A stretch of 64,000 nucleotides of DNA from Mobula hypostoma (lineage: Eukaryota): assembly GCF_963921235.1 (NCBI RefSeq), contig NC_086108.1, positions 53,198,001 to 53,262,000 on the forward strand, read 5' to 3'. Positions 5,001 through 57,770 of this stretch are shown piece after piece. The position numbers and the translations under genes were made by a program. Every line of letters begins with the position of its first letter. Within the stretch, counting starts at the first letter, position 1. The notes beneath the pieces are model-generated. The model did not search any database and was not told where the DNA came from. It worked only from the letters and a program-made list of their open reading frames with translations.

Positions 5001-8000
5001 GCTCACTGGGCAACGTAGCTGGCATAGACAGTTGGACTGAAGGGCCTGTCTCCTTTCTGTGTAACTATGACGATATTATCCACAGTGCAGGCTGACGGGT
5101 GGTTGAGGGAAGTGAGAGAAAAGTTATAGGATGAGTATAGATGAGTGCTTCATGGTGAGTGTGGATGTGATGGGTCGAAGGGTCTGTTTCCCTGCTATAT
5201 GACTGCAGCATATTTAGATTTGGGCTGGCACATGTTTGTGTCACATAAATGCCAGGTGATCATCATCCCATACAATAGAAAGTATATCCTGACCTTTGAT
5301 AGGACCTTCCTCATTGTCCTTCAACAACACCTTTTGTCTGGTTATTGACCGATTGTTCTTCAGAACCAGCAACATCAACATCATAACAGTGAGGCCAATG
5401 AAAAAGGTGGACCCTCTGACACGTGGCACATTTTTTGACTGTTATGAACATTTCCACTTTCATGAACTGATAACACATAAAAATTGCCGGTGAATGCAGC
5501 AGGCCAGACAGCATCCATAGGAAGAGGTACAGTCGACGTTTTGGGCCGAGACCCTTCGTCGGGACTAACTGAAAGAAGAGATAGTGAGAGATTTGAGAGG
5601 GGGAGGGGGAGATCTGAAATGATAGGAGAAGACAGGAGAGGGAGGGATGGAGCCAAGAGCTGGAAAGTTGATTGGTAAAAGGGATATGAGAGGATCATGG
5701 GACGGGAGGTCTAGGGAGAAAGAAAGGGGGAGGGGGGAAGCCCAGAGGATGGGCAAGCAGTATAGTGAGAGGGACAGAGGGAGAAAAATGAGAGAGAGAG
5801 AGAGAGAAAAAAAAAAATTAATAATAAATAAATAAATAACGGATGGGGTACGAAGGGGAGCTGGGCCATTAACAGAAGTTAGAGAAGTCAATGTTCATGC
5901 CATCAGGTTGGAGGCTACCCAGATGGAATATAAGGTGTTCCTCCAACCTGAGTGTGGCTTCATCTTGACAGTAGAGGAGGCCTTGGATAGACATATCGGA
6001 ATGGGTCATGGAATTAAAATGTGTGGCCACTGGGAGATCCTGCTTTCTCTGGCGGACAGAGCATAGGTGTTCAGCAAAACGGTCTCCCAGCCTGCGTTGG
6101 GTCTCGCCAATACATAGAAGGCCGCATCGGGAGCACCAGACACAGTATATCACCCCAGCCAACTCACAGGTGAAGTGTTGCCTCACCTGGAAGGACTGTC
6201 TGGGGCCCTGAATGGTGGTAAGGGAGGAAGTGTAAGGGCATGTGTAGCACTTGTTCTGCTTACAAGGATAAGTGCCGGGAGGGAGATCGGTGGGAAGGGA
6301 AGCGGGGGGGGGGGAACGAATGGACAACTGGTAGCTGTTTAATTACACAGGCTTTATGCATGTTTTGCCCTTCGTTGTTTGGGCCGCCAAATTATCAAAC
6401 GAAGACGTGCTCAGATCAGATTGTCAATGCCAGAAGTGGAATATCGGATATCCACAAATTTGTACAGAACACCTGGTAGTGACTGATATTCCTTGGGCAT
6501 CTTATGGCTTAAACATGTGAATGACAAAGATGGAAATGTGTTTGTGTATGAAAATTAAGTACAGTGGATTCCAGTTAATTGGGACATGTCAGGAGCAGTA
6601 TGTTGTGGCCAAATTAAGTGGCTGCGCCAATTATTCAGTTTCTTGGAAATAGTTTAAAAAGGTATTAACAAGACAAACCACCATTTAACTGAGTAACAGA
6701 TGCATTTAAATGAAACACAGACCAAATTAGAGCAGTACTAATATTTCTGCAATACTATGAAACTGTAGTGGTTCGTAATGGAGGAATTCATGAGTATACG
6801 CTGGCATTGTACTCGATTGGTAAACTATCCATTCTTAGCCCCTTAAAGCATCAAGGTTTAATGCTTTTCCCAATAATCAACGATTTCTTGTTATCAGTTC
6901 CTGACGTATTTGAACAACGCAGCACAGTTATGCGATCCATTGCTTTATTTTGAACCTGATTATGTTGGTGTTTGTAGCAAAAGGAATCATCCAGTATGGC
7001 ATGATTTTTTTTAAAAAAAAAAGGTCTGTTTCGTTGGCATTGTAGATGTCATCTGCACAAAATTTTTGAAGCAAGTTGGGGAATTTGCAGATTTCTATGT
7101 TTCTGCACTTATAGCATCAATACTACCTTTCTCACCACGTGCTTTCTTGAATTTAATGTGGTGTCCACATTTCCATTGGGATAACCAACGATCTGTTGCT
7201 TTAAAATCTTTGTGGCCCAGCTTCCTAGCTAACTCCTCTGACTTGTTTTTTGATATTGGTCCACTGACACGCACAACTCGTCCAGTTATAATGGAAAGCC
7301 ATTGATTGAGACCCTTTTCAACATCTGGATCTTCACCTTTACATTTTCATTTTAGGGATGTTCTTTGTTGTCCCTCTCATAATGCCCATTCTTCTCACAG
7401 TTTATCTTGCTGATGTATCAAGTGTGCAATTGTAGATTTCGGCAATCCAGTTATCTATTCCAAGTGATGATAAGTGGTGTTGGGCGGATAACTTTTAATT
7501 TGGTCCGGTAGGGTATCTTTTTCCGCTAGTGTCACATTTTTTTTGTGGCAAGAGTCTCTACAATTTATTTTTAACGTCAAAATTAAAGAAAACTAAAATT
7601 AAAAAAGAAATAATAAATAACAAATAGGAAATAAATATCGAGAACATGAGATGAAGAGTCATTGAAAGTGAGTCCACAGGCTCTGGGAGCATTTCAGTGA
7701 TTGGGCAAGTGAAGTTGAGTAAAATTATCCCCTTTGCTTCAAGAGCCAGATGGCTAAAGGGTAATAATTGTTCCTGAACCTGGTGATGTGAGCTCTGAGG
7801 CTCCTGTACCACCTTCCTGATGGCAGCAGCGAGAAGAGAGCATGTCCTGGGTGGTGGGGGTCCCTGATGACAGGTGTTGCTTTTCTGCAGCAATGCTTTG
7901 TACAGATGTGCTCAATGGTGGAGAGAGCTTCACATGTGATTAACTGGGCCACATCCACTACTTTTTGTAGGATTTTCCATTCAACGACATTGGTGTTTCT

Positions 8001-11000
8001 ATACCAGGTTGTGATGCAGCCAGTCAATATACTCTCCACTACACACTGCAAACTCCTAAGGAAGTAGAGGCGCTGCCATGCTTTCTTTGTGATTGCACTT
8101 GTGTGCTGGGCCCAGGGCTGGTCCTCCAAATTAATAACATCGAGGAATTTAAAGTTGCTCTCCCTCTCCATCTCTGATCCTCTGATGCAGGTTGGGTCAT
8201 GGACCTTTAGTTTCCTCCTCCAGAAATCAATAATCAGCTCATTGGTCTGCTGACATTGAGTAAGAGGTTGTTGTTGTGGCACCACTCAGCCAGCTGTTCA
8301 ATCTGGGTCCATCTATATCAAGATCTGGATGATAAGGTGGTAAACCGGGCCAGCAAATTTGCCGATGACACTAAGATTGGTGGTGTAGTGGACAATGAGG
8401 AAGACTATCGAAGCTTGAAGCAGGATCTGGATCAGCTGGACAAATAGGGTGATAAATGACAGATGGAATTTAATGCAGACTAGTGCGAAGTGTTGCACTT
8501 TCGGAGGACCAACCAGGATAGTTCTTACACAGTGAGTGAGGAGTGTGTTGGAACCGATCTGGGAATATAGATCCATAATTCCTTGAAAGTCGCGTCACAT
8601 GTAGGGTCATAGACAAATCCAGTGGCTCATTGGCCTTCATAAATCAACGTGCTAAACACAGGAATTAGGATGTTATCGTTTAAATTGTATAAGATGTTGG
8701 CAAGGCCTAATTTGGAGTATTGTGTGCAATTTTGGTCACTTACCTGCAGGAAAGATGTAAATAAGATTGAAAGAGTGCAGAGAAAATTTACAAGGTTGTT
8801 GCCAGGACTTGACGACCCAAGTTATAGGGAAAGGTTGAATTGGTTAGGACTCTGTTCCCTGGAACATAGAAGATTGAGGGAGATTTGATAGAGGTGTACA
8901 AAATTATGAGGGGTATAGATAGGGTAAATGCAAGTAGGCATTTACCACTGAGGTTAGGTGGAACTATAACTAGAGATCATGCGTTAAGAGTGGAAGATGA
9001 AATGTTTAAGGGGAACATGAGGTGAAACTTCTTCTCTCAGAGGGCGGTGAAAGTGTGGAACGAGCTGCCAACGCAAGTGGTGGATGCGATTAAGATTTTA
9101 ATGTTTGAGAGATGTTTGGATAGGTACATGGATGGGAAGGGTATGGAGGGTGATGCTCCAAGTGGAGGTCAGTGGGACTAGGCAATTTAAATGGGCTGGC
9201 ATGGACTATATGGGCCAAAGGGCCTGTTGTTCTGTAGTTTTTTTTAAGATTATGACTCTATTAAGTTGATTTAAAAGTACATTGCTTAAAGAGAAGTTAT
9301 ATGCTTCAGATTGCAGTGATAGTAATTCAAAAGATGTATGTGTACAAGTATTATAAGTAGCCTGCAGACTGTCACCATGGTTCACTGGCACCATCTTGCA
9401 AAATGAGGTCCAAATGGATAACATAATATAAGCATGTGCAACTGATGCAACTGTTCATTCTAAGCACAGTGTAGTGTCTTAACAGCCTCACAAGTACATG
9501 TGCCTAACCGTTTCTTGTCCCAATTAGGCAGAACGGTGTCCCAAATAAATGAAGGGAATCCCAGCTATGTTCTCGATTTGTTTAAGAGTTGTTCCAAATA
9601 ATTGGCTGCCCCAGTTAACCAGAATCCACCGTACATGGGGAAAGTCACAAAACTGTATACTCATCATAATAAGGAATAAAAAAAAAACAGCTTTGTGGAA
9701 GCTATGCAGTTCTGATGGTTGTGGATTAATTCTTATGAAGTCAAGTGTTGTGCGGCTTCTGCTTTTGTAGATGAGGGAGAAATGTGTATGTTACTGTCAG
9801 CCATAGTCTCAGACTGAACGTTTTACTGCAGCACCCTCTGTCGAAAGTCTTAGATCAACTTTCATTAACACCTGTTCAGTGGGGATCTTGAGAATTCTGC
9901 TGGTCATGTGGACATAGAACTCAGATGGTGTAACACAGTGAAACCCTTCATCCCACAATGTTGTACTGACCTTGTAACGTTCTCCAAGATCAATATAAAC
10001 CAGGGGTCCATGGACTCCTTGCTTAATGGTATTGGTCCATGGCATCAAAATCATTGGGAACCCTTGGTGTAAACCTTCCCTTCCAAATTGCCCTCCATTT
10101 TTCTTTCTTCTATGTGTCTATCTAAGAGTCACAAGTATCCTTAATGTATCTGCCTCTACCACAATCCCTAGCAATGTGTTGTATTCACTTACTGCTTTAA
10201 AAAAAACCTCTGACAGCCCCCCGAACTTAAATTACTTTAAGTTGTGTCCGCTCATATTAACCACTGCTGCCATGGGGAAAAAGGTGCTGGCTGTCCACTC
10301 AACCTACCCTTTTTATCATCCTCTGAGAACAGAACAGCGCAGCATATTCGCCCGTTCTACGAGGGGTGATTGATAAGTTCCTGGCCTAAGGTAGAAGGAG
10401 TCAATTTTAGAAAACCAAGCACATTTATTTTTCAACATAGTCCCCTCCTACAGGTATACACTTAGTCCAGCAGTCTTGGAGCACATATGGATCCCTTCTT
10501 TGTAGAAGTGGTCCACAGCAGGGGTGATGGATAAGTTTTTGGCCTAAGGTAGAAGGAGATGAAATATTAACTTCAAACTTTCTGCATTATCACTCAAAGA
10601 GTTGAACTGGACGTGCACATAACAAGAGCATCTTGGACCTCCAGGTGGTCCACAGCAGGGGTGATTGATAAGTTTGTGGCCTAAGATAGAAGGAGATGAG
10701 TTATACAGCTCTTGTTACATGCACGTGCAGTTCAACTCTGAGTGAAAATGCAGAAAGTTTGAAGTTAATACTCATCTCCTTCTTCCTTAGGCCACAAACT
10801 TATCAATCACCACTGCTGTGGACTGCTTTCTGGAGGTCCAGAACGCCAACTTCTACAAAGAAGGGATCCATATGCTCCACGACCGCTGGAATAAGTGTGT
10901 AAATGTAGGAAAAATAAATGTGCTAAGTATTCTAAAATTGACTCCTTCTACCTTAGGCCATGAATTTATCAATCACCCCTCGTAGTACTAACTTCATACT

Positions 11001-14000
11001 TGTTAAGGGTTCATTGAGGACCTCCCCTACCACCTTCAGCTCCAGGCACACATTTCCTCTTTTATCCCTGATCAGTCCTACTATCACTCATGTACTGTTC
11101 TTCATGTACATGTGGAAGGCCTTGGGGATTTCCTTAATCCTACTTGCCAAAGCCTTCTCATGTCCCCTTCTAGCTTTCCTAAGTCCCTTCTTAAGCACCT
11201 TCCTGACGGCATTATCACTTTCAAGAGTCCTGTCTGGATGGGACAGACCTATCCAGTGCCCCATGTAAGTGCTCCCTGAACAACTTCCACATTTCTGTTA
11301 TACATTTCCCTGAATACATCCAATTCTAATTTGTTTCCCAGTTCCTGCCTGATAACATCATAATTCTCCCCTCCCCAATTATTACTTTCTCATACCATCT
11401 GCTCCTATCCTCCTGCATGACTGGTAAAGCTCATGGAGTTGAGGTCACTATCTCCAAAAGGCTCACCCACTGAGAGATCTGTCACCTGACCAGGTTTATT
11501 GCCTAGTACCAGATCCATTATGGCCTCTCCTCTAGTTGGCATGCCAGCATACATTATTGTGTTAAGAATTATTCTGGCTAGATTACAAGTATTATTTTTC
11601 TCTCTGTCCCATACATTAAAGATGTAATGTGTTGATTAAAATTAAATGTGAAATGTCTATTGATACCTGTGAGTGATGTGATTCCTAAACTGGAGTGCTA
11701 TTGACTGACATGATATTAGAGATTTCCAACCAGTACTTTGAGGAGGAAGCCTCTGGGTTTCTACAAACCATTTTGGTCTGGTTCATTGCATGCAATGAGT
11801 CCCATTCACAATACATTGAACTGCAGTGTACAATTGCAAATTGTCCCTGTGGTTCAATGCTTTAAACCATGGAATGGACCAATAGATAGAATCGAGACAG
11901 TTCCTTGACCCACGATATTTTGTGATAGATTGCATTTGTGTGGGGGAATTGGGCTGTTGGTGGTCAGGGACTGGGCTGAATATATTCAGCCATAATTCGA
12001 TAAGCTGACCCTATGGTGTGAAATAATGGACTTGAACTCGTGGTGGAACAAAGAAAATAATACCAGACCAGAAATCCAAAAGAAATGTGATGCATTGGAA
12101 ATACTGCAATAAAATATCCCCATCGCCACACCAGCAGGATTTTTTCATTTCTTCTGGCTATTTCCTTGTGATCTCAGAGTGTCAGTTGGGTTCAGTTGGT
12201 TCTTGATTTCCTGCACAATCATTTCAGACAATGCAGATCAAAAAGAACTTGACCCTGCTCCTCCTCATACACTGCATGCATTAAAGTCGCATGGAAGTTG
12301 AGATGGACTAAAGCAGTAGAAGGGAAAGGGGACTGGAGTCAGCAGCAGTTATGTTTTTTCTCAGGATCACATTGCTGAATGCTGGATCTCTTTTTGATGG
12401 ACCACTTTCAGACTACAGTCCTTAAAAGCTTGGGAATTAAGGATACAAAGAAAAGCAAACTTGAAGTTCTGACCAGGAAAATGGTCTGAATTCCATGATC
12501 TATTTAGTAAGCTGAGCTTGTAATCTCAGATGAACAAAATCAGAAAGCATTTTTGCAGAATGTTTGCGGAAATATGGAATACCCTTCCCCAAGTCACTTT
12601 GGATGTTGGGTTAATGTTATAGAATTTTGTGGGATATGCCGCAAAGGCAGACAAACGAAGTGGAGCATAGAACTGGTTTGAGAGAGTGAGCGATCTATAC
12701 TCAATGCAAGCTGAAATATCTGTGGTATGTACAGAGTTAAGTGGTCTTGTTCAGGGTGGTGTTGGCACTGCTAAAATGGTGCTGGAGTCCTTAGCGGAAG
12801 GAAAGGGAAAGTAGTAAAATATTGATTTAGGCAAACTTTATATGATGAAAAGTATGTTTTTAGTTGTCTAGAAGTAGACCTAATGAAATCAGTAGCCTAT
12901 GGAGGAGGTACATTGCAGTGACCGACAGTTGTGGAATGGTGTAACAGAGATGGTGAGCTAACTACCAAGAAAACCTGTTGAAGCAGATAGCACGTGGGTT
13001 CAACATTTGAAAGATAACATCAAAAGTCATACCTGTGGACTGAGGTTTCACCATTTGGAGGTTTTTTTTATTATCCTATGCAGTAAGATTCTGATTGACA
13101 CTTCTAACATACTATTAATTTTATTTAGTGCTTGCGGCAGACTTCAGTGTATATATCCCGGCAATCCTTTACTATATTCTTCACTGTGAAGGCCCAAAGA
13201 CCATGAAGGTAGGCATTGCATTCAATGTTACTATTGCAATTTTTAAAAATCAATTATTAAGCAAATGTTTGCTGTTAATTTTTTTAGCCTTGAGCCATAT
13301 ACCTAAAATATCAACTTTTTAAAACGATTAATTTTGTAAGTAGAAGATTGTCTCAGATAGTTGTTCCAAGAATCAAACAAATGGCATTGGTATTTTGTGA
13401 AGCAAAAAATTGCAGGTACTGGAAATCAGAAGTAAAACCAGAAAATGTTTGAAATAACTTTCTGGTTCTGATAAAAGGTCATTTCAAAGCTAGAGTTAGA
13501 AAATACAAGTTTCTTTCTATCAGAACAATTCTGTTAGACTATATCATTGGAGAACTAGCAGTTATTTTCTTCACTGCAACCTGCTACCGGGTATTTTTAA
13601 TTATACATTTTGCTGACAGAGTAAACAGTGGTTGGCCTCATTAAGAATGAGAATGAGACGATGTACAGAGAGGAGATAGAGCAGCTGGTAGAATGGTGCG
13701 AGCACAACAACTTGAGTTTCAACGTGGACAAGACCAAAGAGGTGATTGTGGATTTGAGGAAGGTGCAAGCTGGCCACTCCTCACTACACATACATGGCTC
13801 TTCTATAGAGAGAGTTAGGAGCACCAAGTTTCTGGGAATACACATAATGGATGATTTCACCTGGTCCCTCAACACCACCTTTTTGGTCGAGAAAGCATTG
13901 CAGCGTCTCTGAAGAGACTGAGCAAGTGAGGGTCCTCCCCATTAACCCATTTTTACAGGAGCACCATTGACTGTCCTGACCAGTTGCATTACCGTCTGGT

Positions 14001-20000: not shown

Positions 20001-23000
20001 TTCTTCACTTCACGCCATTTCAGCACGAAAGGTTTCATAGGAACGCTCTACATTAGCGGGTGAAATACGGGACAAGGGCAGTCCCGCATGGGACAAACCA
20101 ATTTAGCCCAATGTACGGGATGTCCCGGCAAATACAGGACAGTTGGTAAGCCTATGTTCAAGTTGAACAGTGCGTGACGGAATGAGGAAAGGTGCAGCTG
20201 ACTCGTATCGTTTCCTCACGGCCTGGTGGTTGGGGACTGCTGATCTATGAAACGAAGAATTAATGTCAAACATTCTAGAGGTGCTGATAGAATGGAAATA
20301 ATTATGAAGTAAAATGCCACCTTTGACTGTAACTAAATCAATTTTTAAAAATTTTTAGTTTGTCTCCAAGAGGAATTTGAAAAGCATTAAATTTAATCTG
20401 TGTCCTGACACTTTACCTAAATCCTGCTTATATGATATATTTTGAAAATGTTCTGCTGGAAAAAAAATCCTTTTATGAAAGTAGGCAGCTTTGGTTTATT
20501 TCATATCTAGTCTGGGTTCATACTTTATTCAGTCCTTAACATGAAAGCACATACAACTGTATCAGCTTGGGCCTTGCCCTATGGGGGTTGCTGGGCCTTT
20601 TGAAAGGCCGGGTCCTGTTGGGATCCATGGCATTTTGCTTAGCTCTTAATTATAAGCAAATGGAACTTTATCATGCTCTCCCATTCTTCTGCTATCTACT
20701 TGGAAGCTGTTTGAAAGACCTGAGCAGTGGAGGGTGAGTAGCTAAAAACTAATAGAATTTGAGTTTTGGCTGCGTCAGATAAATCAGGTAAGGTCGTTTT
20801 AAGATTCGTAAATTGTTCTATTTTGCAATTGCTCTGTAAGCGACTTAAATACAAATCCAAGCATTATTTTTAGAATAACTAGTAGCTTCTTTCCAAATAT
20901 TCCTTATAACTGAAATCTTTCGTAGAAAACAAGGATAATTTCCTGGTGTCTGAAGTTGTACAATGCTAGTCAGTAAGCATTTGAGTAGAGACTAATGTAT
21001 TGTGGAATTGGCTATACATTCGACAGTGTCAGATTTGAGTGTCATTTTCTCTGATGGAAGTGTGGTAGTAATGCTGTAATTTACCTCTGAACTTGGAAAG
21101 TTGATGGGTTAGGAGTATGAACTGTAAAAGGACAGAATTTGACTTGCCTGGTATGACCCAAAGTTGGAAGAACTTTTTATCATTCTGTAGTAATAAATGT
21201 GCAGAATGGACATGTGCAAGATATTGACAAACGGATTTTTTTTTCAGAACTATAATCCACCTGGGATCAATGTATTCCAAAGAGTTGGTGAGAAAATAAG
21301 TGGATGATATATCTATTGATTAGAAAGTAATGATGTAATTCCTTTCACAACCCCTTAATCTCAAAAGCAATTCAGAGCCACAAGATATTTTCAACATTGT
21401 AAATTGGGGAAGCATAACATCAGGTTTATGCAACACTCACAACATGCTGGAGGAACTCAGCAGGTCGGGCAGCATCCGTGGAAACGTTGATTGATCATTT
21501 CCGCGGATGCTGCCCGACTTGCTGAGTTCCGCCAGCATGTTGTGAGTGTTGCTTTGACCCCAGCATCTGCAGAGTATTTTGTGTTTACATCAGGTTTACA
21601 GAGTTTCACCTAGAAGGTTGTAACAGATGTCACCTGTTTCAGTCATGTTACACTTCAGAAATAATATACAAGCTTCCGCTAGTACAGTGAAATAAAGAAC
21701 TCTGTCTGTTTGAGGAATAACGACTGTTCAGTCAGTGGAAGTGTATCTGAAACGGGCCTTATCCAAAGACTAACATCTACAACAGCTTAGCATTCCTAGG
21801 TACTGCACTGGAGCATGAACTTGGGTTGTGATGGTCCAGAAATAGTTTTCATAAAACACCTTTCTTATTGATTAGATGTTAATGTTGAATTCACTGAATG
21901 ATGACAATATAACTTCAGATGGTTATACAAAAATGTCAGGTTCAACAATATCAGGGTAGAAGTTTACCTTTCTTGCCTAATCTAGTGTAGTGCTAAGCAG
22001 GATCCCTGCTTGCGTAGTTCACTAATACCATCTACTGAAATGGCTATCAAATCACTCACTGCAAAAGGAATTAAGACCATAAGATATAGGAGCAGAAGTA
22101 GGCCATTTGGCCCATTGTCGCTGCTCCGCCATTCAATCATAGGCTGATCCAATTCTTCCAGTGATTCCCACTCCACCCCATACCCTTTGATGCCCTGGCT
22201 AATCAAGAACCTATCTATCTCTGCCTTAAATACACCCAATGACTTGGCCTCCATAGCTGTTCGTGGCAACAAATTCCACAGATTTACCACCCTCCAACTA
22301 AAGTAATTTCTCCGCAATCAGTTCTAAAAGGACGTCCTTCCATCCTGAAGTCGTGCCCTCTTGTCCTAGAATCCCCTACCATGGGAAATAACTTTGACAT
22401 ATCTAATCTGTTCAGGCCTTTTAACATTTGGAATGCTTCTATGAGATCCCCCCCCCCCGCCCCCTGCCATTCTCCTGAACTCCAGGGAATACAGCCCAAC
22501 AGTTGCCAGACATTCCTCATACGGTAACCCTTTCATTCCTGGAATCTTCTCTGAACTCTCTCCAGTGTCAGTGTATCCTTTCTAAAATAAGGAGCCCAAA
22601 ACTGCACACAAGTGCCTTATATAGAGCCTCAACATCACCTCCCTGCTGTTATATTCTATACCTCTAGAAATGAATGTCAACACTGCATTCGCCTTCCTCA
22701 CAACCGACTCAACCTGGAGGTTAACCTTTAGGGTATCTTGCACAAGGACTCCCAAGTCCTTTGTATCTCTGCATTTTGAATTCTCTCCCCATCTAAATAA
22801 TAGTCTGCCCATTTATTTCTTCCACCGAAGTGCATGACCATACACTTTCCAACACTGCATTTCATTTGTCACTTCTTTGCCCATTCCCCCTAAACTATTC
22901 AAGTCTCTGTAGCTTCTCTGTTTCTTCAACACTACCACTCCTCCACCTACTTTGTATCATCAGCAAATTTAGCCACAAATCCATTAATACCGTAGTCCAA

Positions 23001-26000
23001 ATCATTAACATATATCGTGAAAAAAATAGCGGCCCCAACACCGACTCCTGTGGAACTCCACTGGTAATTAGCAGCCAGCCAGAATAGGATCCCTTTATTC
23101 CCACTCTCTGTTTTCAGCCGACCAGCCAATGCTCCACCCATGCTAGTAACTTCCCTGTAATTCCATGGGTTCCTATCTTGCTAAGCAGCCTCATGTGCAG
23201 CACCTTGTCAAAGGCCTTCTGAAAATCCAAGTACACCACATCTACTGCATCTTCTTTGTCTACCCTGCTTATAATTTCCTCAAAGAATTGCTGTAGGTTT
23301 GTCAGGCAGGATTTTCCTTTCAGGAAACCATGCTGGCTTTGGCCTATCTTGTCATGTGCCTCCAGGTACTCTGTAATCTCATCCCTAACAATAGATTCCA
23401 ACAACTTCCCAACCACTGATGTCAGGCTAACAGGTCTATAGTTTCCTTTCTGCTGCCTCCCACCTTAAATAGCAGAGTAATATTTGCAATTTTTCAGTCA
23501 TCCGGTACAATGCCAGAATCTATCGATTCTTGAAAGATCATCGCTAATGCCTCCACAATCTCTCCAGCTACTTCCTTCAGAACCCGAGCGTGCATTCCAT
23601 CAGGTCCAGGAGATTTATCCACCCTCAGACCATTAAGTTTCACGAGCACCTTCTCGGTCGTAATTTTCACTGCACAAAGTTCACTTCCCTGACACACTTG
23701 GATGTCCGTTGTTTTTTTTTGTCCGCTATACTGCAGACATCTTCCACTGTGAAGATTGATGCAAAATACGCATTCAGTTCCTCTGCCATCTCTGCATCTC
23801 TCATTACAATATCTCCAGCGTCGTTTTGAATTGGTCCTGTATCTACCCTTGACTCTCTTTTACCCTTTAAATGCTTAAAAAAGCTTTTAGCATCTTTTAG
23901 TTGCCAGCTTCCTTTCCTAATTCACCTTTTCCTTCCTAATGACCTCTCAGTTTCCTTCTGCAAGTTTTTAAGAGCCTCCCATTCCTCTATCTTCCCACTG
24001 GCAGAGATTAAGCAGAGATTTAAAAAAAAAATTGGTGTTGCTAGTTAGCAAGTGTGAATGTATAAAATAAGACTTTAACTGTCTTTAGGATTTGTCATTT
24101 GAGTCCCATAGAATCCTATACCTACTTTTATACTGTATACTTGTAGTAGATGCTATAGGGATATGGAAAGATTAAAATCTGACAACTTAATTTTTTAGCA
24201 TGGTTACAGCGTGCTCATTATAGAACAACTTTGTATAGAGAATGTTGAAGCATAAGGTAGTAAAGAGTGTTCTGGGGTGAGGAAGCATCAAGAAACTTCA
24301 GACACTATGACATTTTAGATGTTTTGCTGTAGAACCCAGAGCTGCTGCTATGATTTTTCTGATTGTGGATATTAATGCCGGAGAGTTGAAATGAGCTTTA
24401 ATTGTTCCAAAAGTACAATATTTTCTCTTGTATTGCAGGTTAACCCGGTTGATCAAAATAGCTCTTGTTGTGTTGATTTCATTTGCTTGCTGCTGGCTGC
24501 CGTTCCTCACAAGTTTCCAGCAGTCTCTACAGGTGATTCAAAGACTTTTCCCTGTTGATAGGGGTTTGTTTGAGGTACGTTCACAAGATTGTTTATTATC
24601 AGTAACCACAAGTTTTGTGGTTGTTCCATTTACTAAACTTAGAGGTTGTAGCATATATGTGTAATTTCAGAAATAATTCACAAGCTGCCACTTTGGTATT
24701 TTATCAAGTTACTGAAGCATTAGGAATGTTTGGAAGCGATATTTTAACAGTCCAACAAAATAAACAATGGTTATCAGTCAAATTATCCAACTGTAACCAA
24801 TCTGTAAGGCCAACTATCTTCATCTGGTGCAAGTTCATCATAAAATCTTCCTGATTAATGTTTCAGTGATGATAATATTAGCTTGGCAACAGTGTAAATG
24901 TCTGTCATGAAATACTTATTTGGACATGGGTGAGGATGAACTTGAGAAATTGTTAGCGTAAGCAAACCACAAGTTGTGTGATAAGTTGGCCATCTCCAGT
25001 TGCTGTTTTAAAAAGATATGCTGATGTGTAAATTATACGTTGAGCTATAATATTGATAGCTGCTCAGTTTGTTTGTAGAATGCCTCGTGTTAACCTTCTA
25101 ACCTTTCTCTGTGTCCTCATCAAATTCGAGGCCGATATTCTATCTGTGCCATGTTTGAGGGAAATGGTTCCATTAGTCTGAGGCGTGGCCAGCTTGCCTG
25201 TGGAATTATGTCCCCTCCACTTGTGACATTGACAACTGTCTCTGCTGTTTCTATTTCCTGTCTTGAACAGAGGTATCAGATATTGCATTCTTGATACTGA
25301 TATCATAGCCATCTACAGATAGCCCATTTATAGATCCATTCTGGCTCATACTTAACCCTTGAAATTGGCTTGCGTTCGTATCGTAAACGCTACAGATTCT
25401 GTTGACTCAGTCAGTGCTGTCTGTGCATATCAGTGTCTCACATTAGATTTATGCCATTTGGAATTTGCTACACTATGGGCAATAACTTTACTGGACTTAA
25501 TAACAAACAAATTTGTGACAGAGAGATTGTTCTGATCCATTCAGTAATCAGTTTCAGCATAGTTCATTTCTATTGTTCTCCACAAAAGGAGTACTTTTTG
25601 AGTAAAAGAATATTGCTTACAAAGATTTTCTGATTCAGCAGAATGAATGAAGCAAGTACTGTATATGAAACAAACAAGAGAAAATCTACAGATGCAAGAA
25701 ATCTAAGTAACACGCACAAAATGCTAGAGGAATTCAGCAGGCCAAGCACCATCTATGGAAAAGAGTGAGCAATCAGAATTTCGGGCCGAGACCCTTTATC
25801 AGAACCCTTCATCTGATGGAGGGTCTCTGCCCGAAACATAAACTGTTTATTCTTTTTCACAGATGCTGCTTGGCCTGCTGACTTCTTCCAGCACTTTATG
25901 TGTGTTATTGTACATGAAAGCAGTTTGAAAGTCTTAGTTGTTTTTATGTTGATACTGTTTGTGCATGTCAGAGCAGAAGAGGTGAAAAGTCTTGTTTGTT

Positions 26001-35000: not shown

Positions 35001-38000
35001 GCGTTAAAATTCAAAAGTGCGTGACAGGAAATGAGGAAAGATGCAGCTGACTCATATCGTTTCATATTGCCAAATCACATTGTTCCTTGCAGCCCAGTGG
35101 TTGGGGACCACTCTTAGCACGAAGAGAGACCAATCAGGATGCTCTCTCTCCCTCTCCCCCTCCCCCTCAAAAAAAATCTATTCCCGGGATATTGTATATA
35201 ATTTCCGGGCGTCAGGGAGCCACTACCGAGATGCGGGAGACTCACGGAACTTCCGGCAGAGGTGGGAGGTGCATTGACCTATTGTGGCAATAGGCAAATT
35301 GCAGTGGGTCCAGGTCTGAGGCAGGAGTTCAGTCTAGTCATAACCAACCTCTCAAAGCATTTCATCACTGTCAAGTACTACCGGGTGATAGTCATTAAGG
35401 AAGCCCACATTATTCTTCTTAGGCACTGGTGTAATTGTTGCAGACTCTCTGTATACACATGACTGTGTGGCTAGGCATAGCTCAAATACCATCTACAAAT
35501 TTGCTGACAATACAACCATTGTTGGTAGAATCTCAGGTGGTGACAAGAGGGCATACAGGAGTGAGATATGCCAACTTGTGGAGTGGTGCCACAGCAACAA
35601 CTTGGCACTCAATGTCAGTAAGACAAAGGAACTGATTGTGGACCTCAGGAAGGGTAAGACGAAGGATCACATATCAATCCTCATAGAGGGATCAGAAGTG
35701 GAGAGAGTGAGCAGCTTCAAATTCCTGGATGTCAAGACCTCTGAGGATCTAACCTGGTCACAACGTATCGATGTAGTTATAAAGAAGGCAAGACAGTGGC
35801 TGTACTTTATTAGGAGTTTGAAGAGATTTGGCATGTCAATAAATACACTCAAAAACTTCTATAGTTGTACCATGGAGAGCATTCTGACAGGCTGCATCAT
35901 TGTCTGGTATGGAGGGGCTACTGCACAGGACTGAAAGAAGCTGCAGATGGTTGTAAATCTAGTCAGCTCCATCTTGGGCATAACCTACAAAGTACCCAGG
36001 ACATCTTTTGGGAGCGGTGTCTCAGAAAGGCAACATCCATTATTAAGGACCTCCAGCACCCAGGACATGCCCTATTCTTACTCTTACCATCAGGTAGGAG
36101 ATACAGAAGCCTGAAGGCACACCCTCAGCGATTCAGGAACAACTTCTTCCCCTCCGCCATCCGATTCCTAAATGGTCATTGAAGCTTTGGACACTCTAAC
36201 TCACTTTTTTTAATATACAGTATTTCTGTTTTTGCCCATTTAAAAAATCTATTCAATACACATAATTGATACTTATTATTATGTTTTATTTTATTATTTT
36301 TTCTCTCTCTGCTAGATTATGTATTGCATTGAACTGTTGCTGCTAAGTTGACAAGTTTCACGTCACATGCCGGTGATAATAAACCTGATTCTGATATTGC
36401 ATGTGGGAAATTTAATCATTGAATAGTTTAAAGCTTTGAATGCAGTCCAACCTCTTCCTGATTCAAATTAATATTTTGTAAGACATGGCATCTGGTAAAC
36501 TAGTTATGTTTTTCTAACTAGGATAAAGTTGGAAATGTGTGGTGCAGTTTATCTATAATATTGAAGGTGAAGAGGATTCTATCACAACAGACACAGATAT
36601 GGCTCAGGTAACCTTTTTCTTGTTGAGCAATTTTGTGTGGTTTAGATATTTCAGTTGTTACTATAGCAATGAAAGGGTTGACATTTTTAAAGTAATTGTG
36701 AATACATTTAATAGTTGAATACTGTGCATTTAATTTAGTACTCTGTATGATCTGTATACCATAGAGATCACTTGGCTTTATGTATTCAGGGAAACTGTAT
36801 TTATAATATGGGAATATTTATAATATGGGAATTTGCAAATGGGCATCAATTGAGGTGGCCGGGTCAGTTAGCTATAAATGGGTGTCAAAGGGAAACAAAA
36901 CTTGTTCCAGGTGGGAAGGAGAGACGGTTGATTAGTACTTAGAATCAGAGTTATGAAGTTCTGTAGCACAGAAGCTTATCCAGAATTAATTCAAAACACA
37001 GCAGATTTTAATGGCAACAGTATCTGTAAATCACAAACTACATAATATGCACAGTTTTTTTGTTTTCTACAGTATTCAAATTTATTTTCTCTTGGACTAT
37101 ATTTGCCCTTTCCACTGGCTTGTTGGAGTGAATGAATGAGAATCAGGTTTAGTATCATTGGCATATATTGCTTTGTGGCAGCGGTACACTGCAATACATA
37201 ATTAAAAATTGCAGTAAGAAATATATATGTAGGAGTGTGTGTGTATTTGTGCGTGTGTGTTTATTGACTGAGATACAGTCCTTTTGGTCCTTTGCACCAC
37301 GACGTCCAGCAATCCCCTAATTCAACCCTAATCATGTCATAATTTACCATGACCAATTAAACGACTTACTGGTATGTCTTTGGACTGTGGGAGGAAACCG
37401 GAGCACACAGAGGAAACTTACACAGTCACAGGGAGAACGTACAAGCTCCTTATAGGCAGCAGCAGGAATTGAACCTGTGTCACCTGTACTGTAAAATGTG
37501 CTAACCTCTACACTACTGTGCATGTTTCTGTCTCTCCAAGTAGTACCATCGAGTCCCGATGATGCTGAGATCAGGGCTTCATTGAGACCGTACCATCTGT
37601 TCCAGAAATCCTTGTTCTTCTTTTCACTGAAGATAGTTGGTTATGACCATGGCCATGTGTTTGGGGTCATTGTCCTGCTGCAGAATGAAATTGGGGCTGA
37701 TCAGATGCCTCCCTGATGGTATTGTGCGATGGATGAGAATCTGTACTCAGCATTGAGGATTCCATTAATTCTGACCAGATCGCCAACTCTATTTGCAGAA
37801 ATGCAGTCCCAAATCTACAAGGAGCCTCCATCGTGCTTCACTGTTGGCTGCAGACACTCATCTGTGCAGTGCTCACCAGCTCTTCTATGGACAAACTGCC
37901 TCCTGCTTGAGCCAGAAATTTAAAATTTTGACTGGTCAGTCAAGACCACTTGCTGCCATTGTCCAGCACTCCAGTCCTTGTATTTTTGTGCATAGGTGAG

Positions 38001-41000: not shown

Positions 41001-44000
41001 AATTTCTTTAGCCAGAGGGTGGTGAATCTGTGGAATTCATTGAAATGGATGGCTGTGTAGGCCAAGTCATTGGGTATATTTAAAGCGGAGGTTGGTACGT
41101 TCTTGATTGATCAGGGTGTCAAAGGTTATAGGGAGAAGGCCGGTGAATGGGGTTGAGATGGATAATAAATCAGTCATGTTGAAATATTGGAGCAGACTGT
41201 ATGGGCCAAATGTTTTATGGTCTGAAATGGTTGATCATAACATAGGAAAACAATTTATTATTTTGAGAAGATATGAAATTGGGGAAAGATTTGAAGAGTA
41301 AACTCTTGTCTGTGAAGAACAACAATTTCAGGATGTATAGTTTATGCATTTCTCTCATATTGAGTAAGTGAGGAATAAAATAATGATTTGGTAGATGGGC
41401 TAATGAGTGGCAAGCAGCATTTAATATGGATGGATATAGGAATAATAGGAGAAAAATGTCATTGGGAATATGCAAAATCTGTTGATTTGGCAACACAACA
41501 GAAGATATATTTTGGGCACATAGCATGCAGCTCATTCAAGACAAAAAATACCAAGTGCATTATTGGTACAGCTAGAATGACAGTACAAATTCCAGGAAGT
41601 ATTGGAGTGTGTTGCTCAGATATAAACATACAGAATGCTGAAGGATCTCAGCAGGTCAGATAGTATTTATGGAAGGAAATGGACAGTTGAAATTTTGGGT
41701 CGAGACCTATTTATTATTAGGATTTCAAAGAAAGGGGAGAATCCAGTTTAAAAGAGTGGAGTGAGGGCTGACAGGTGAATCTAAATGAAAGGAAGACAGA
41801 TAGTGGAGGAGGGAGTTTTATTTGATATAAGCAACTGGGAGGTGATAAGTGGAAGTGACAGAAGACTGAAGAAGATGCAAACAAGAGAAAATCTGCAGTT
41901 GCTGGAAATCAAAGTAATACATGCAAAATGCTTGAGGAACTCGGCAGGCCAGGGAGCATCTATGAAAAGGAGTAACCAATCAACGTTTCAGGCTGAGACC
42001 CTTCATCAGGACTGCAAAAAAGGGATTAGAAGATTAGATTGGACTTCTAATTTCTTTTTTCCATGTTGACTGTTTACTCTTTTCCATAGATGCTGCCTGG
42101 CCTGCTAAGTCCTTCCAGCATTTTGCGTGAAGAAAATGCAGTTTATTTATCACCTACACATTCATCTCTCCAATTTCCTCCTCACCTCCTTCACTTTATT
42201 CCATGGGCCACTGTCCTGTCCAATCAGATTCCATCTTCCTTAGCCCTTTGTCACTTCTACCTGGAATTAAGGCTCAGATTTTGAGGAAAGGTGGAGTCAT
42301 AGATTTATTTGGCCCTTCAGTTCTCCATGCCTGTCCCAGTGTATTGCTTATCTACACTAGTCCCTTTCTCTTGCTTTAGGACTGTATATTTCTAGTTAAT
42401 TGCCTATCCAGATGCCTCAAATGCAGTTATTGTGTTTGAGTCCACCACATTCTCTGGCAGCACATTCCAAATATCAACCATTGCTTAAAAAAAGACCATC
42501 CCTCTCAGATTGCCTTTAAAACTCCTTCCCATCATCTTAAATTTGTGCCCTCTTGTTTTTGGAAAACCCTACTATGAGAAAATTTTTTTTTTTGATATCC
42601 ACCCTATCTATTCCTCTCATAATTTTATATACTTGTATCATGTCACCCCTCAGGCTCCTTTGCTCCAGAGAAAAGAACCAATCCTATCCAATCTCTCCTC
42701 ATAACTAATCCAGGTAACATCCTGGTGAATCTCCTTCCTACTACGTCTGGCACAACCCCATTCTTCCTGTAGTATGGAGACCTGAACTGCACGCAATAAA
42801 TGCAGTATTGTGCAAAAGTCTTGGGCACATATATATATAAATCTGTAAAGCAAAGATGCTTTCAAAAATAATGAAATGAAAAGTTTCTAAATATATAAAG
42901 ATAATTATAAAGAGCGGTAAACAGTAAAAAACTAAATTGAATCAGTATTTGCTTTGACCACCCTTTGCCTTTAAAAGTGCATCAATTCTCTTGGATACTC
43001 TGACGTGCACTTTTATAAGAACATCACCTGATAGGTTGTGCCAAGCATCTTGGAGAACTTGCCACAGTTCTCCTGTAGAATTGGGTTGACTCACTTGCTT
43101 CTGTCTCTCCAGTAATCCCAGACAGTCTCGATGATGTTGGGATCAGGCTCTGTGGAGGCCATACCATATGAAACCATTAAACAAAATATTGGGTGTCTAA
43201 GACTTTTGCACAGTAGTGTACATCTGTGCTATGGTTTAAATTATTCAAAAATGCAATGAAAATATTATGAGGACACATTGCAAGGAAAATACGAAGGGAT
43301 TATTGGATAGAAGATTAAGGGCAATTAAGGGCCATCTTTTTTTTGGACATGCACTTGGCACATTCTTATTCTCTAATTTAGCTTTGACATTTAGACAGGA
43401 AAGCATTATTTCTAACCTTATGGTAAACGGAAGTGGATGAAGAATTTTCACAACATTCCAAATTGCTTTTATCAAGTGGTAAAACAGATCTGGGCAATGT
43501 TCTTCGACTGGTGTTTAAAGTCAAGTCTTTGCTTCTAATCAGTGATTCTCCAAACATTGATTTCCTGATCTTTCAAGTTCTTTCACAGAAATTTCACAAA
43601 ACAGCTCGAGGCAAGTCATGTATATTCATTTTAATACGCGAGGGTCTGTTTTTCCCTTGATGTGAAGTGATTGAAATAACTCTATGTTTAACAATAATTG
43701 TTTCTCTTATCAGTTTTGCTGCAACACTTCTGACACTTCTGCCTACATGCATGAAGTTGACAATGAATCCCACAATAAAGGGATTCAAGTTTGCACTGGT
43801 AAGTTGCATTTTGTGAATTGACATGCATTGCATACAATTTTTTAAATATTAACTTACATTTGGCAATAAGAGCTAAAAGGATTTTAAGCTGTGGTGATCG
43901 GCATTGTATTCGATTCTGTGCCCTCCTGCCCTGTCTAGAATTGGTTCTTCTCAGCTAGAAGCAAAATTACCAGAGTTCTCTCTTTTCTTGCCTTAGTGAT

Positions 44001-47000
44001 TCCTTTTGAAGTGTGTTATATTGTCAAGTCTGTTTGTGGACTGTTATTAACCTCCACATTGTTGAATACTTTTTTTGTGTGTTTATATCAAGAATAGCTA
44101 ATTGGTTGGGACTGAAAGCAGATGTCACTTGAGGAGTGGTCTCCAACTCAGTCTATTTAGTGTTGGCCCACTCCCCAAGATCCTTTTGTTTGCAACTACA
44201 GGTCGACCTTCACTAATCCGGCACCATTGGGATCTGAGGAGTGCTGGATTAGTGAAAAGCCAAATTACAGAAGGATCACATTAAGCATAATCAGTGCCGG
44301 ATTATTGAAGGAACCGGATTGCAGGTAGTCAGATTAGTGAAGGTCGACCTGTATTTCCTTTCTGGCGAAGGTGATGTCAAATAGAGAAATTGGCAGATTT
44401 TCCCTTTCCTAGTCCGAAGGACACTAGCAAGTCCATGTCACAATTGATTGTGTAACTCGAGCTATCGTCTTCCTGCTCTGTATTGTTCTGTTCATTTACT
44501 TGCCCTTTGTTTTTTGTTAATGCTTGTGGATTTTTTTTTGTTTTGTCCTCTGATAGTAAATTGTAACATTCATAATGCAGAACAAAAAAAATAATCTTTG
44601 TCTTTAGATTTTGATCTTCTGTGGCTTGGCAGTTATTCAGTGAATGTGATCTAATATATATGTGCATTGAAAAAAAATAGATAATAACCGAATCCCTTCA
44701 TGTTGCATTTCTCTGTGATGCGGTGGAGTGATCCACTCTACAGACACACCATTGGAAAACCGTCATGTTAACTGTGCTCTTCCTTCTTCAATGGCCTGGT
44801 GGGCAGTGAAGGCACAGATCAGTGTAATTGTGCTATTGTAATTGGCGTCACCCTGTCTCTGAAGAGCAAAAATTGAATGCTTCCAGTCTTATCTGTTGTG
44901 TACCAATTCTGGCTGGATATGTGCCTCCTGTTGCACCAACACTTGCTGTTTAGTCAAGATTGATGGCTTGGATGAAATTCCAGAGGGCAGGCAGCTGCTG
45001 TAGATCTCAAATAAGAGTTGGTGCCTGCAGGAATGGAGAGGGATAAAATAGGTGGGAGAATAACCTTGACAGCACAATTATAAATTCAACAGTTTTTTTT
45101 TGCAACATGCTTCTAACTTTAAATTAAATTTACTTTCTGTAAAAATTCATGAATTGACTGTTTGCTAACATGCACTAGTAATTGACTTGAAAAACGTTCT
45201 ATAAATCCTGTGGATCATTACAATTCTGTAAGTTCTGACAGCTTTGGGTGGATTGGGCAGCTTCGGGCAGATTTATTCTTGGAATATGGATTTTCTTTTA
45301 CTTAATCATATTTCAGCTTTAGCTACTTTATGCACAGTCTAAGCAAATTCAAGCACTCTCTGGACTAAATTACTAAGTGTTATAATTCTGATCCAAATTT
45401 TTGCTTAGAAGCTACAGATATGAATGATGCACAATAATTTGATGGATAAGCATTCCTGCATCCTAATTACCCATACAAGTGAGATAATTTAATGCAATTT
45501 GTCTTTTTCTTGATTTCCATCATGCTTCTGTGGGCAGTTGTCAGGTGTAGTACCCCAGGGGAAAAAAAGAACAATATTCATCCTATTTTTAAAAAATCCC
45601 TCTTGCTCCGGGTGGAATTGGAACAGACAGTTCACTCAAGAATTGTTGTGCCATTTTGTTAGAAGGGGAGAGGCAATAATTTTGCTCAATATTCCATAAA
45701 GTCAATCTTTGAATGATTTTAGACCTGCACGTAGAAGCAAGTTTTTGAAACCTCTAGATGCATAGTGGACAGACTCCAATAATCACTAAATTTTATTTTG
45801 AGAATCGCCAAGTTAAAATAAGAAAGATTTTCTTCTTTGGCGATAATGATTAGACTTGGTGTTCTTTGTGATGAGGGGCTATCTTTTATATTGGATTGAG
45901 CTGGGACTTATGATGACCCCGCTCTTCATTTATACAATTATGCAAGTTATCCTTGTGTAGCATTTATCTCTGAGCCCCTATACATTAAGTAAGAGACTAT
46001 ATTTAAATAGTGATTAAAAATTTCTCAAGTCCATTTAGCCACTGCTCCACTTGAACATTTCTTGATCTGAGATAATACAAGTGGAAAATCACAGGACAAG
46101 CTCTGGACCCCATCCCTCTATCTTGAGTCATTGACAACTGGGAAAAGAGCAATAACTAAATTAAAGTTTCTCAGGGTTGCTAACATTTGTGAAACTGTAC
46201 CATTCTATGTACTGAGATTCTTTAGAAGGGAACACAATTAAGAGTTTGAAGAAAATATGTTGATACTTTCTTGCAATATGTAACTGGCACAAGCTAAGTG
46301 AAATTTCTTCTCTTTTTTTTGTAATTTCTAGGTCAATTGTTCCTTATCATTTTTCCTGTTTTCATTCCAAGTTCATGAAAAATCTATACTTCTGGCAGCT
46401 ATGTAAGTTTTGGGAATTTGTTCTTTAATGTCTTACAAGATAAACCCATGTAATAAGTGATCCTCGGCCTCACTGCAGTGGTGCTCTTCATGGGCATTGT
46501 TCTACTTTTGGAAGGTTGTTACAGATCAACCCAGGCCCCTCTTTTGCTGGGGTCACAGGAGTGAAAAATCTGTTTATTCCTCTGAATGATCTTCCTTTGT
46601 CAGGTGTCCACTTGGCATTGAATCTGGGACCTTGCTCTTCATGGGCCATTATCTCCTCAGACATGTTTGGTATTTTTATTGACCATGATGCTGTTATGAT
46701 TTTTTTTTTATTGGAACATTTTCTCCCCATTTTGTCATTATACTGGGATGCCTCATAGGATATGTGGAGAGTCTAAAAGTTAACATTTCAGCCCATTGTT
46801 CCTTCATCAGAACTGGAACAGGTTTTCACTTTTTCTTGCAGTTCAATAGTTATCACTCACGTAACATCATGTTCTTTTGCTATGACTACAAATGTCTACA
46901 CATTCTTAGATATATATATACACACACACTGTCTGTTTGCAGTAACGGAGGGAAAACGTGCCAATAATTCTAACGCATTAAGAAAGCTCCCTTAAGTGAC

Positions 47001-57394: not shown

Positions 57395-57770
57395 ATTAGG
57401 TTAGCTTTATTTGTCACATGCACATAGGAAATACAGTGAAATGCATCATTTTTTTTATCAAATCAACAAGGATTGTGCTACTGAAGGGTTTGGCCCGAAC
57501 CATCAACTGTACTTTTTCCATAGATGCTGCCTGGCCTGCTGAGTTCCTCCAGCATTACGTGTGTGTGCTGCAAAGTTTGTGCTAGGCAGCCTGCAAACAT
57601 TGCCACGTTTCCAGTGCCAACATTGCATGCCCACAACTCACAAACAGTGGCGGTACATCTCTACTGTACTGTGGGAGGAAACCGGAGCATCCGGAGGAAA
57701 TCCACATGGTCACGGAGAGGAACTCCTTATAGATAGCGACAGTGTAATCCATTGGCACTACTACTACCGG
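57395..57770 (-). mobile_element. SINE with a Rex1-like tail, interrupted by a Penelope-derived mini-element
   Basis: gctttatttgtcacatg tail; tgtgggaggaaaccggagca core; related fragments at about 59435-59555 and 61610-61690. Confidence 0.65.
57481..57570 (+). mobile_element. Single-arm Penelope-terminal-repeat mini-element
   Basis: gaagggtttggcccgaacc..catagatgctgcctggcctgctgagttcctccagca; TSD CAAGGATTGTGCTA / CAAAGTTTGTGCTA. Confidence 0.72.

Follow-up and report, generated by a model that had tools for sequence, protein, structure and literature searches.

The window analysed here, a stretch of 64,000 nucleotides from Mobula hypostoma, is vertebrate DNA rich in repeats, among them many LINE fragments. 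It contains a Penelope-like element (PLE) at 5470 and several short repeats related to the end of this element, which a first-pass annotation had proposed to be the parent of a non-autonomous family of ribozyme-bearing, hairpin-forming mini-elements. The question raised by the locus is whether the short copies, here called stubs, form such a family or are ordinary by-products of PLE insertion. A discrete, self-copying mini-element bearing a hammerhead was not supported, and the stubs read as ordinary insertion by-products. We consider it likely that the stubs and the 5470 copy were all dead on arrival, having been inserted by several sister subfamilies of a PLE that bears an endonuclease and is abundant in a myliobatiform ray. 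The features are collected in Table 1.

Read on the minus strand from 6325 to 5470, the main copy consists of a truncated linker, a CX4CX2C motif, a GIY-YIG domain with CCHH residues, a stop codon at 5869–5871, the UTR, and a hammerhead from 5566 onward, and it reaches the arm end near 5471 without a tail. The open reading frame (ORF; 5869–6342, minus strand) gave a weak match to the GIY-YIG family of Pfam (E 0.0053, 17.5 bits, under the cut-off of 22.6). Its best protein matches were from M. hypostoma (87–88% identity) and Hypanus sabinus (84%), and the 88%-identical ray protein has RT-thumb and GIY-YIG sequence, which bears out the GIY-YIG ORF of the first-pass annotation. The terminal repeat reported with it proved to be the hammerhead-containing pseudo-LTR of a PLE. 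Reverse transcriptase (RT) sequence upstream of the endonuclease is missing in the truncated window copy and is represented by RT motifs in the relatives P0001–P0004; P0017 has RVT_1 followed by GIY-YIG, and the GIY-YIG match of relative P0016 was over the Pfam cut-off. Ray proteins with 73–87% identity to the window ORF extend upstream into RT motifs and, by their RT and GIY-YIG sequences, show that there are coding sister subfamilies. A search with one ray relative returned 20,530 proteins at E ≤ 0.001, the best full-length relatives having 750–950 amino acids and 41–47% identity. In alignment A1 the CCHH residues C65, C68, H87, and H103 were invariant in all 10 rows, and the cysteines C22, C27, and C30 of the CX4CX2C zinc-finger linker were invariant as well. 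By the features examined (CCHH GIY-YIG, RT in relatives, hammerhead pseudo-LTR, and target-site duplication, TSD) the element at 5470 is an endonuclease-bearing PLE, its 8-bp TSD being within chance when taken on its own (p 0.14, 400 random site pairs).

The element had been called Neptune-type. According to the available text of one preprint, a CX2-5CxxC motif between RT and EN is common to Neptune and Nematis and missing in Penelope and Poseidon (10.1101/2021.04.23.441226). Since Nematis was absent from the 35 species of a second preprint, in which the vertebrate groups are Neptune and Poseidon as far as its available sections go (10.64898/2026.07.22.740005), Neptune is favored by exclusion. 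The designation thus held for a PLE with the Neptune/Nematis zinc-finger linker, and by this exclusion of Nematis the clade is probably Neptune itself. Database records of 10 full-length relatives carried no clade names (nine unnamed, one 'hypothetical protein'), and no solved structure for PLE relatives was found in databases.

The 5470 copy is dead: it is without RT, YIG has become CIG, and the ORF has two small deletions. Contigs of organisms A and B span both of its junctions. In organism G the match of one contig ends at 5469 with 260 letters remaining, and the depth was 5.4 on the left as well as the right flank; we read this as an empty site at the locus, the joint itself lying outside the matches listed.

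Hammerhead positions are numbered here by the standard scheme. A hammerhead descriptor permitting up to two core changes, with 10 shuffled windows as control, found two matches in the window, at 5566 and at 42013, the latter with an unchanged core. Two of the 10 shuffled windows gave one match each at up to two changes, and none did at zero changes. An Rfam scan at E up to 1 returned eight matches, the hammerhead family being absent among them. The minimal hammerhead on the minus strand at 5566, with its changes U4C and G12A, has the sequence that the first-pass annotation gave and was recovered by the descriptor. Related contigs carried the U4-restoring letter at 98, 96, 99, and 94% of contig depth and the G12-restoring letter at 79, 76, 74, and 93% (runs X1, X5, X14, and X15, respectively). 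The core of the family hammerhead is thus canonical and U4C and G12A are decay private to the 5470 copy, because related contigs carry the canonical letters, which also rule out a new ribozyme variant. Monomer folding of the hammerhead regions was no better than that of shuffles in five of five cases (z −1.18 to 0.34), as expected because the motifs are without stem III.

Minimal hammerheads have been described as CUGANGA and GAAA boxes with an extra nucleotide before stem II, with stem III missing and positions 15.2–16.2 palindromic; they were reported in fish Xena, Poseidon, and Neptune, where most such motifs are single and were ascribed to truncated PLEs, and their cleavage requires two copies (PMC4209133). 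The 5566 motif shows no substantive difference from those covered in the available text of that paper. A pyrimidine tract ending in CAG lies at stem I or 4 nt before it at 5566–5590 (minus), 42011–42032 (minus), 42044–42062 (plus), and 46812–46825 (minus). The 41880 variant has a branch-point-like CTAAT in the tract upstream of the hammerhead, and a further tract variant was seen in one loose contig end of run X15. These CAG tracts resemble a 3′ splice site that overlaps helix I, an arrangement reported for the Penelope of Drosophila virilis (PMC4209133); the whole UTR is pyrimidine-rich, and this is only a lead.

Contigs of the same four runs were overlaid on positions 5330–6470 at 80% identity. 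With the main copy as reference the overlay mostly collected relatives of 5470 and mostly missed stubs of sister subfamilies. It comprised at least 159,176 (X1), 149,314 (X5), 58,511 (X14), and 8,528 (X15) records, and with at least 159,176 contig pieces from X1 on a 1.1-kb stretch the PLE family is very abundant. Contigs of three organisms covered both the coding body and the repeat. No position gathered a fifth or more of the molecule starts or ends, and among the 15 joints listed (762 further) each occurred in at most five contigs. For the hammerhead compared with the ORF end, depths were 7.76 versus 7.79, 17.3 versus 15.2, 1.53 versus 1.93, and 0.198 versus 0.192 million in the four runs; contig depth cannot rank parts of an element, and the near-equality is a hint at most. 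Loose contig ends carried other UTR and ORF-end variants, which are sister subfamilies. Run X15, which is only guessed to be RNA, covered the element with 8,528 pieces and left the flanks bare; these pieces reveal neither strand nor ends nor expression of the 5470 locus.

Table 1. Features of the PLE and its short relatives in the window. TSD p values are relative to 400 random site pairs with one mismatch permitted; TSD boundaries were picked by eye, those of the hairpins resting on outer-end homology and that of 57481 being partly circular.
Feature	Position	Strand	Evidence
5′-truncated PLE copy, ~855 bp: zinc-finger linker, GIY-YIG endonuclease, 3′ UTR, tail-less pseudo-LTR	5470..6325	-	Domain/protein matches; contigs bridging both junctions
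ORF remnant: CX4CX2C motif, CCHH residues, YIG to CIG, two small in-frame deletions, RT absent	5869..6325	-	Alignment A1
3′ UTR, pyrimidine-rich	5571..5868	-	302 nt, stop codon to hammerhead stem I
Left candidate TSD, 8 bp, 1 mismatch	5465..5472		p 0.14, non-significant alone
Right candidate TSD, 8 bp	6326..6333		Pair of 5465..5472
Minimal type I hammerhead, private changes U4C (5561) and G12A (5542)	5531..5566	-	Descriptor, contig letters
Old, distant relative (approximate ends)	13395..13560		Tail and arm start on minus, hammerhead start on plus; pairwise only
Hairpin stub, 156 bp, arms 94% identical over core, right-arm tail, hammerhead core absent	21429..21584		
TSD of 21429, 14 bp	21415-21428 / 21585-21598		1 mismatch, p 0.0025
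Hairpin stub, 238 bp, arms 83% identical, left-arm tail, both hammerheads broken	25671..25908		
TSD of 25671, 11 bp	25660-25670 / 25909-25919		1 mismatch, p 0.0075
Decayed single arm, partial tail, CUGAUGA box absent	41600..41710	-	No TSD, p 0.80
Hairpin stub, 248 bp, arms 82% identical, left-arm tail	41880..42127		
Complete hammerhead core in 41880 left arm	from 42013	-	Descriptor
TSD of 41880, 13 bp	41867-41879 / 42128-42140		1 mismatch, p 0.0025
Old hammerhead-like remnant, CUGAUGA and GAAA boxes intact, stem II broken	46778..46818	-	Pairwise
Single-arm stub, 94 bp, start inside hammerhead core	57481..57574	+	
TSD of 57481, 10 bp	57471-57480 / 57575-57584		1 mismatch, p 0.0175

A family profile was built from nine arms in the window, so recovery of those nine is by construction; beyond them it gave five weak matches (E 0.37 or worse), and zero matches in the reversed window. 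Five of the six family insertions in the window are ORF-less stubs shorter than 250 bp. That such repeats have TSDs of 11–14 bp of their own held for 21429, 25671, and 41880 and failed for 57481, which has one arm only and a TSD of 10 bp. The TSDs and the one-sided tail do agree with insertion of the short copies by the PLE machinery. In all three hairpins the 3′ ends point outward and a tail of ~35 nt is present on one arm only, the 3′ ends lying at the tail end (21429R, 25671L, and 41880L) or 35–47 nt short of it. The centers differ in each: in 21429 there is a 5-nt microhomology downstream of the hammerhead core, in 25671 the join falls at the CUGAUGA box with ~8 extra nt, and in 41880 it lies upstream of the core by 23–34 nt, and the right arm has a 27-nt hammerhead deletion. 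With lengths of 94, 156, 238, and 248 bp there is no modal length in this small sample, and without a common junction in the three hairpins the discrete non-autonomous family was not borne out by the one window and the one contig overlay.

Over the 53-column core, identity between the two arms of a hairpin is 94, 83, and 82% (differences of 6–18%), which points to different insertion ages; arms of different insertions are 64–86% identical and the 5470 element is 63–73% identical to all short arms. The stubs appear to derive from PLE sister subfamilies and not from the 5470 copy because their arms are only 63–73% identical to it. The missing RT, the change of YIG to CIG, and nine columns at which the 5470 copy differs where at least seven of the eight short arms agree rule out this copy as the parent that had been proposed. 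The short copies had also been described as hammerhead-bearing, and the full core is kept in one arm of eight, the left arm of 41880. All eight arms start within a zone of ~75 nt, from ~34 nt upstream to ~41 nt downstream of C3, and none exactly at the cut site; the 41625 arm starts at −15 or ~+8 relative to C3, depending on a weak extension. A tandem array of the repeat unit was absent among the eight tandem repeats of the window. The arm-plus-tail regions had no stable fold (z 0.70 and 1.08) and the AC-rich stem-loop of PAc, the Poseidon of Anolis carolinensis, was not recognized in them. Varying lengths, unshared junctions, and a hammerhead that is mostly absent or broken form the pattern named beforehand as telling against a discrete family.

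Two single observations concern individual stubs. In 41880, a single case, the 27 nt missing from the right arm are precisely the hammerhead, and the left core is intact; judged by its sequence, a minus-strand transcript of this copy would, once folded, hold the ribozyme in the loop without a pairing partner. Within 57481–57621 the 57481 stub adjoins another dispersed repeat, family D20 (43030, 57571, and 59503), and probably lies inside it.

The annotated decayed pieces were of unequal standing. The one at 41625 was matched by the profile; those at 13405 and 46778 are real and more distant, with pairwise matches only. Over 12 comparisons in all, the minus strand at 13405 gave p 0.005–0.01 against three of three tail-bearing arms, and 46778 gave p 0.01, 0.045, and 0.22. 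Both were missed by the family profile, and 46778 by the hammerhead descriptor too. They look like older, more distant relatives.

We propose that the stubs would arise as follows. Each insertion retains the 3′ end of the element, stopping at the arm end or ~35 nt beyond it in the tail, and four have a TSD of 10–14 bp. In other PLEs the protein is known to nick and extend both target strands and to begin reverse transcription at two internal RNA sites bounding the tail. In a hairpin, each target end would prime its own cDNA, one per start site; both cDNAs would halt early near the hammerhead, and microhomology or a short fill-in would join them head to head; every hairpin would thus arise anew at insertion with no copying from another hairpin. 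The one-sided tail in three of three hairpins, the unique centers, and the single arms would follow because each target end primes one cDNA per start site. Sequence 5′ of the hammerhead cut site is kept in seven of the eight short arms, which argues that the templates would be uncut RNA, and the hammerhead would be a passenger of the autonomous element with no role in stub spread. The short length could be due to copying that starts in the upstream pseudo-LTR near the 5′ end of uncut RNA, where the template runs out; this weaker part of the scheme has about even chances. Against the scheme, there are only three hairpins, and draws from a junction-rich family would look alike; the start zone of ~75 nt and the five short stubs among six insertions are not obviously predicted by random truncation. 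In a small sample, much the same picture would come from stalling at the hammerhead or from simple steep truncation combined with a detection floor. For the head-to-head joins, self-priming on an antisense template, as put forward for Adineta vaga (PMC3846280), is an alternative.

The ORF-less copies with TSDs of their own, and the nine diagnostic columns common to the short arms versus the main copy, could also be accommodated by a discrete hairpin family, comparable to MITEs or SINEs but derived from a PLE, in which a short RNA is re-inserted as a unit by Neptune proteins and of which several subfamilies were sampled. Coding sister subfamilies exist, and trans-mobilized pLTRs and non-autonomous PLE derivatives have been reported (PMC3846280; 10.1101/2021.04.23.441226; 10.64898/2026.07.22.740005). 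This explanation is improbable given that no length or junction is common to the three hairpins, two copies are single-arm, arm ages differ, and arms of different insertions are just 64–86% identical. Re-copying would moreover mean reverse transcription through a stem of −112 kcal/mol in the 21429 hairpin, and the outer end would need rebuilding, whereas a two-start-site model would supply that end free. It is a similarly long shot that some hairpin stubs are a class of their own, in which Neptune proteins would use both start sites to copy a short pseudo-LTR RNA. Such an RNA might start just upstream of the hammerhead and spread as a fold-back unit, with 41880-like copies keeping an intact hammerhead in the loop, details to which we give equally little credence; if true, cartilaginous fish would have a hairpin-shaped counterpart of MITEs that is driven by a PLE.

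Later loss of the interior of longer insertions, by deletion between inverted pLTRs or by palindrome extrusion, would leave stubs as remnants, and longer PLE inserts between inverted pLTRs in one TSD as well as microhomology-mediated deletions have been described (PMC3846280). The 27-nt internal deletion in the right arm of 41880 and the microhomology join in 21429 are in line with such loss. It leaves unexplained why the arms all end near the hammerhead and why the TSD of single-arm stub 57481 lies right at the truncated 5′ end, and we regard it as unlikely. Very improbable is a retrozyme-type cycle, in which the hammerhead would excise a monomer that is circularized and reverse-transcribed into the genome: the repeats stand singly or head to head, with no tandem array, seven of eight arms are without a full core, none starts exactly at the cut site, and minimal hammerheads need two copies for cleavage (PMC4209133). 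What such a cycle has in its favor is the intact minimal hammerhead core of the family consensus and the occurrence in a cartilaginous fish of animal retrozymes related to PLE pseudo-LTRs (10.64898/2026.07.22.740005).

Taken as ordinary PLE debris, the stubs are chiefly an annotation matter since they mimic MITEs or microRNA hairpins. Positions 21457–21526 in the 21429 hairpin gave a sub-threshold Rfam match to mir-1791 (34.9 bits, gathering 75), and hairpins of this type are a likely source of false microRNA calls. The ray gene models P0003, P0005, P0008, P0012, and P0013 have ordinary gene names and contain long stretches of PLE ORF; names on such PLE-bearing models include chitinase domain-containing protein 1 and neuromedin-U receptor 1, which suggests annotation contamination or exonization. 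A family of this abundance would offer very many junctions in a ray assembly, which bear on a possible clustering of PLE 5′ ends at the hammerhead and on the use of different start sites by the two arms, as an in vivo check of two start sites outside the Poseidon clade. Some observations lie beside the PLE. An exon-like ORF at 54372–54707 (plus) matched the ALG6/ALG8 glucosyltransferase family (E 1.5e-4, 21.4 bits, under the 25-bit cut-off), and some stubs may sit in introns of an ALG6/ALG8-like gene. At 10350–10990 direct and inverted copies of a 55–80-bp unit (D18, I9, I18, and I19) form nested hairpins unrelated to the PLE repeat; the cluster looks like a transposon-end derivative. A Tc1/Tc3-type transposase fragment lies at 37920–38282 (minus; Pfam PF01498, E 2.2e-4, under the cut-off).

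No published account of the ray PLE family was found; subscription papers, preprint supplements, Dfam, and Repbase may have one. In the text available, a mobulid genome preprint has no occurrence of 'Penelope' and reports repeats by class only (10.64898/2026.10.27.761883), 10.1101/2021.04.23.441226 does not mention ray or shark elements ('shark', no occurrences), and PMC7561263 and PMC5753468 added nothing on hairpin PLEs. An exact scan of viral contigs for a 20-nt arm motif gave no matches. In metagenomes the motif occurred at six loci, none of which matched the window by BLAST and all of which were prokaryote-like chance matches.

Among known systems, animal non-LTR retrozymes resemble the stubs in being ORF-less kin of PLE pseudo-LTRs with a type I hammerhead. 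By definition they are arranged in head-to-tail tandems of which two or more units carry a complete type I hammerhead, whereas the ray copies are inverted or single and mostly miss the core (10.64898/2026.07.22.740005). The Penelope of Adineta vaga, represented by several families, has inverted pLTRs, a one-sided 31-bp tail, TSDs of 8–10 bp, solo pLTRs, and head-to-head and microhomology junctions, all of them features in which it resembles the ray stubs. The head-to-head junctions were ascribed to self-priming on an antisense template, with pLTRs mobilized in trans. Unlike the ray stubs, it is of low copy number and its inverted pLTRs mostly surround longer inserts (PMC3846280). For PAc, cutting and extension of both target strands was found in vitro, along with two internal RT start sites that bound the tail, 111–118 nt into the ORF; uncut RNA served as template and hammerhead cleavage was dispensable for insertion (PMC11167929). 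The ray family would share the two start sites, the cutting and extension of both strands, the uncut template, and the dispensable hammerhead, its mechanism being read from sequence, and it has the zinc-finger linker that PAc, of the Poseidon clade, is without. Endonuclease-bearing PLE insertions in general have been described as strongly 5′-truncated, with a truncated copy in inverted orientation, a tail of 30–40 bp at one end, and a variable TSD (10.1101/2021.04.23.441226); the combination of inverted repeats, one-sided tail, and variable TSD is an already published PLE insertion signature. The ray copies also resemble the Neptune-clade PLEs of Craig et al. (10.1101/2021.04.23.441226), which have the C-terminal GIY-YIG with CCHH, the CX2-5CxxC linker, and the pseudo-LTR hammerhead as well as the 5′ truncation, inverted copy, one-sided tail, and variable TSD; unlike those described in the available text, the inverted inserts of the ray consist of the pseudo-LTR alone, at 156–248 bp.
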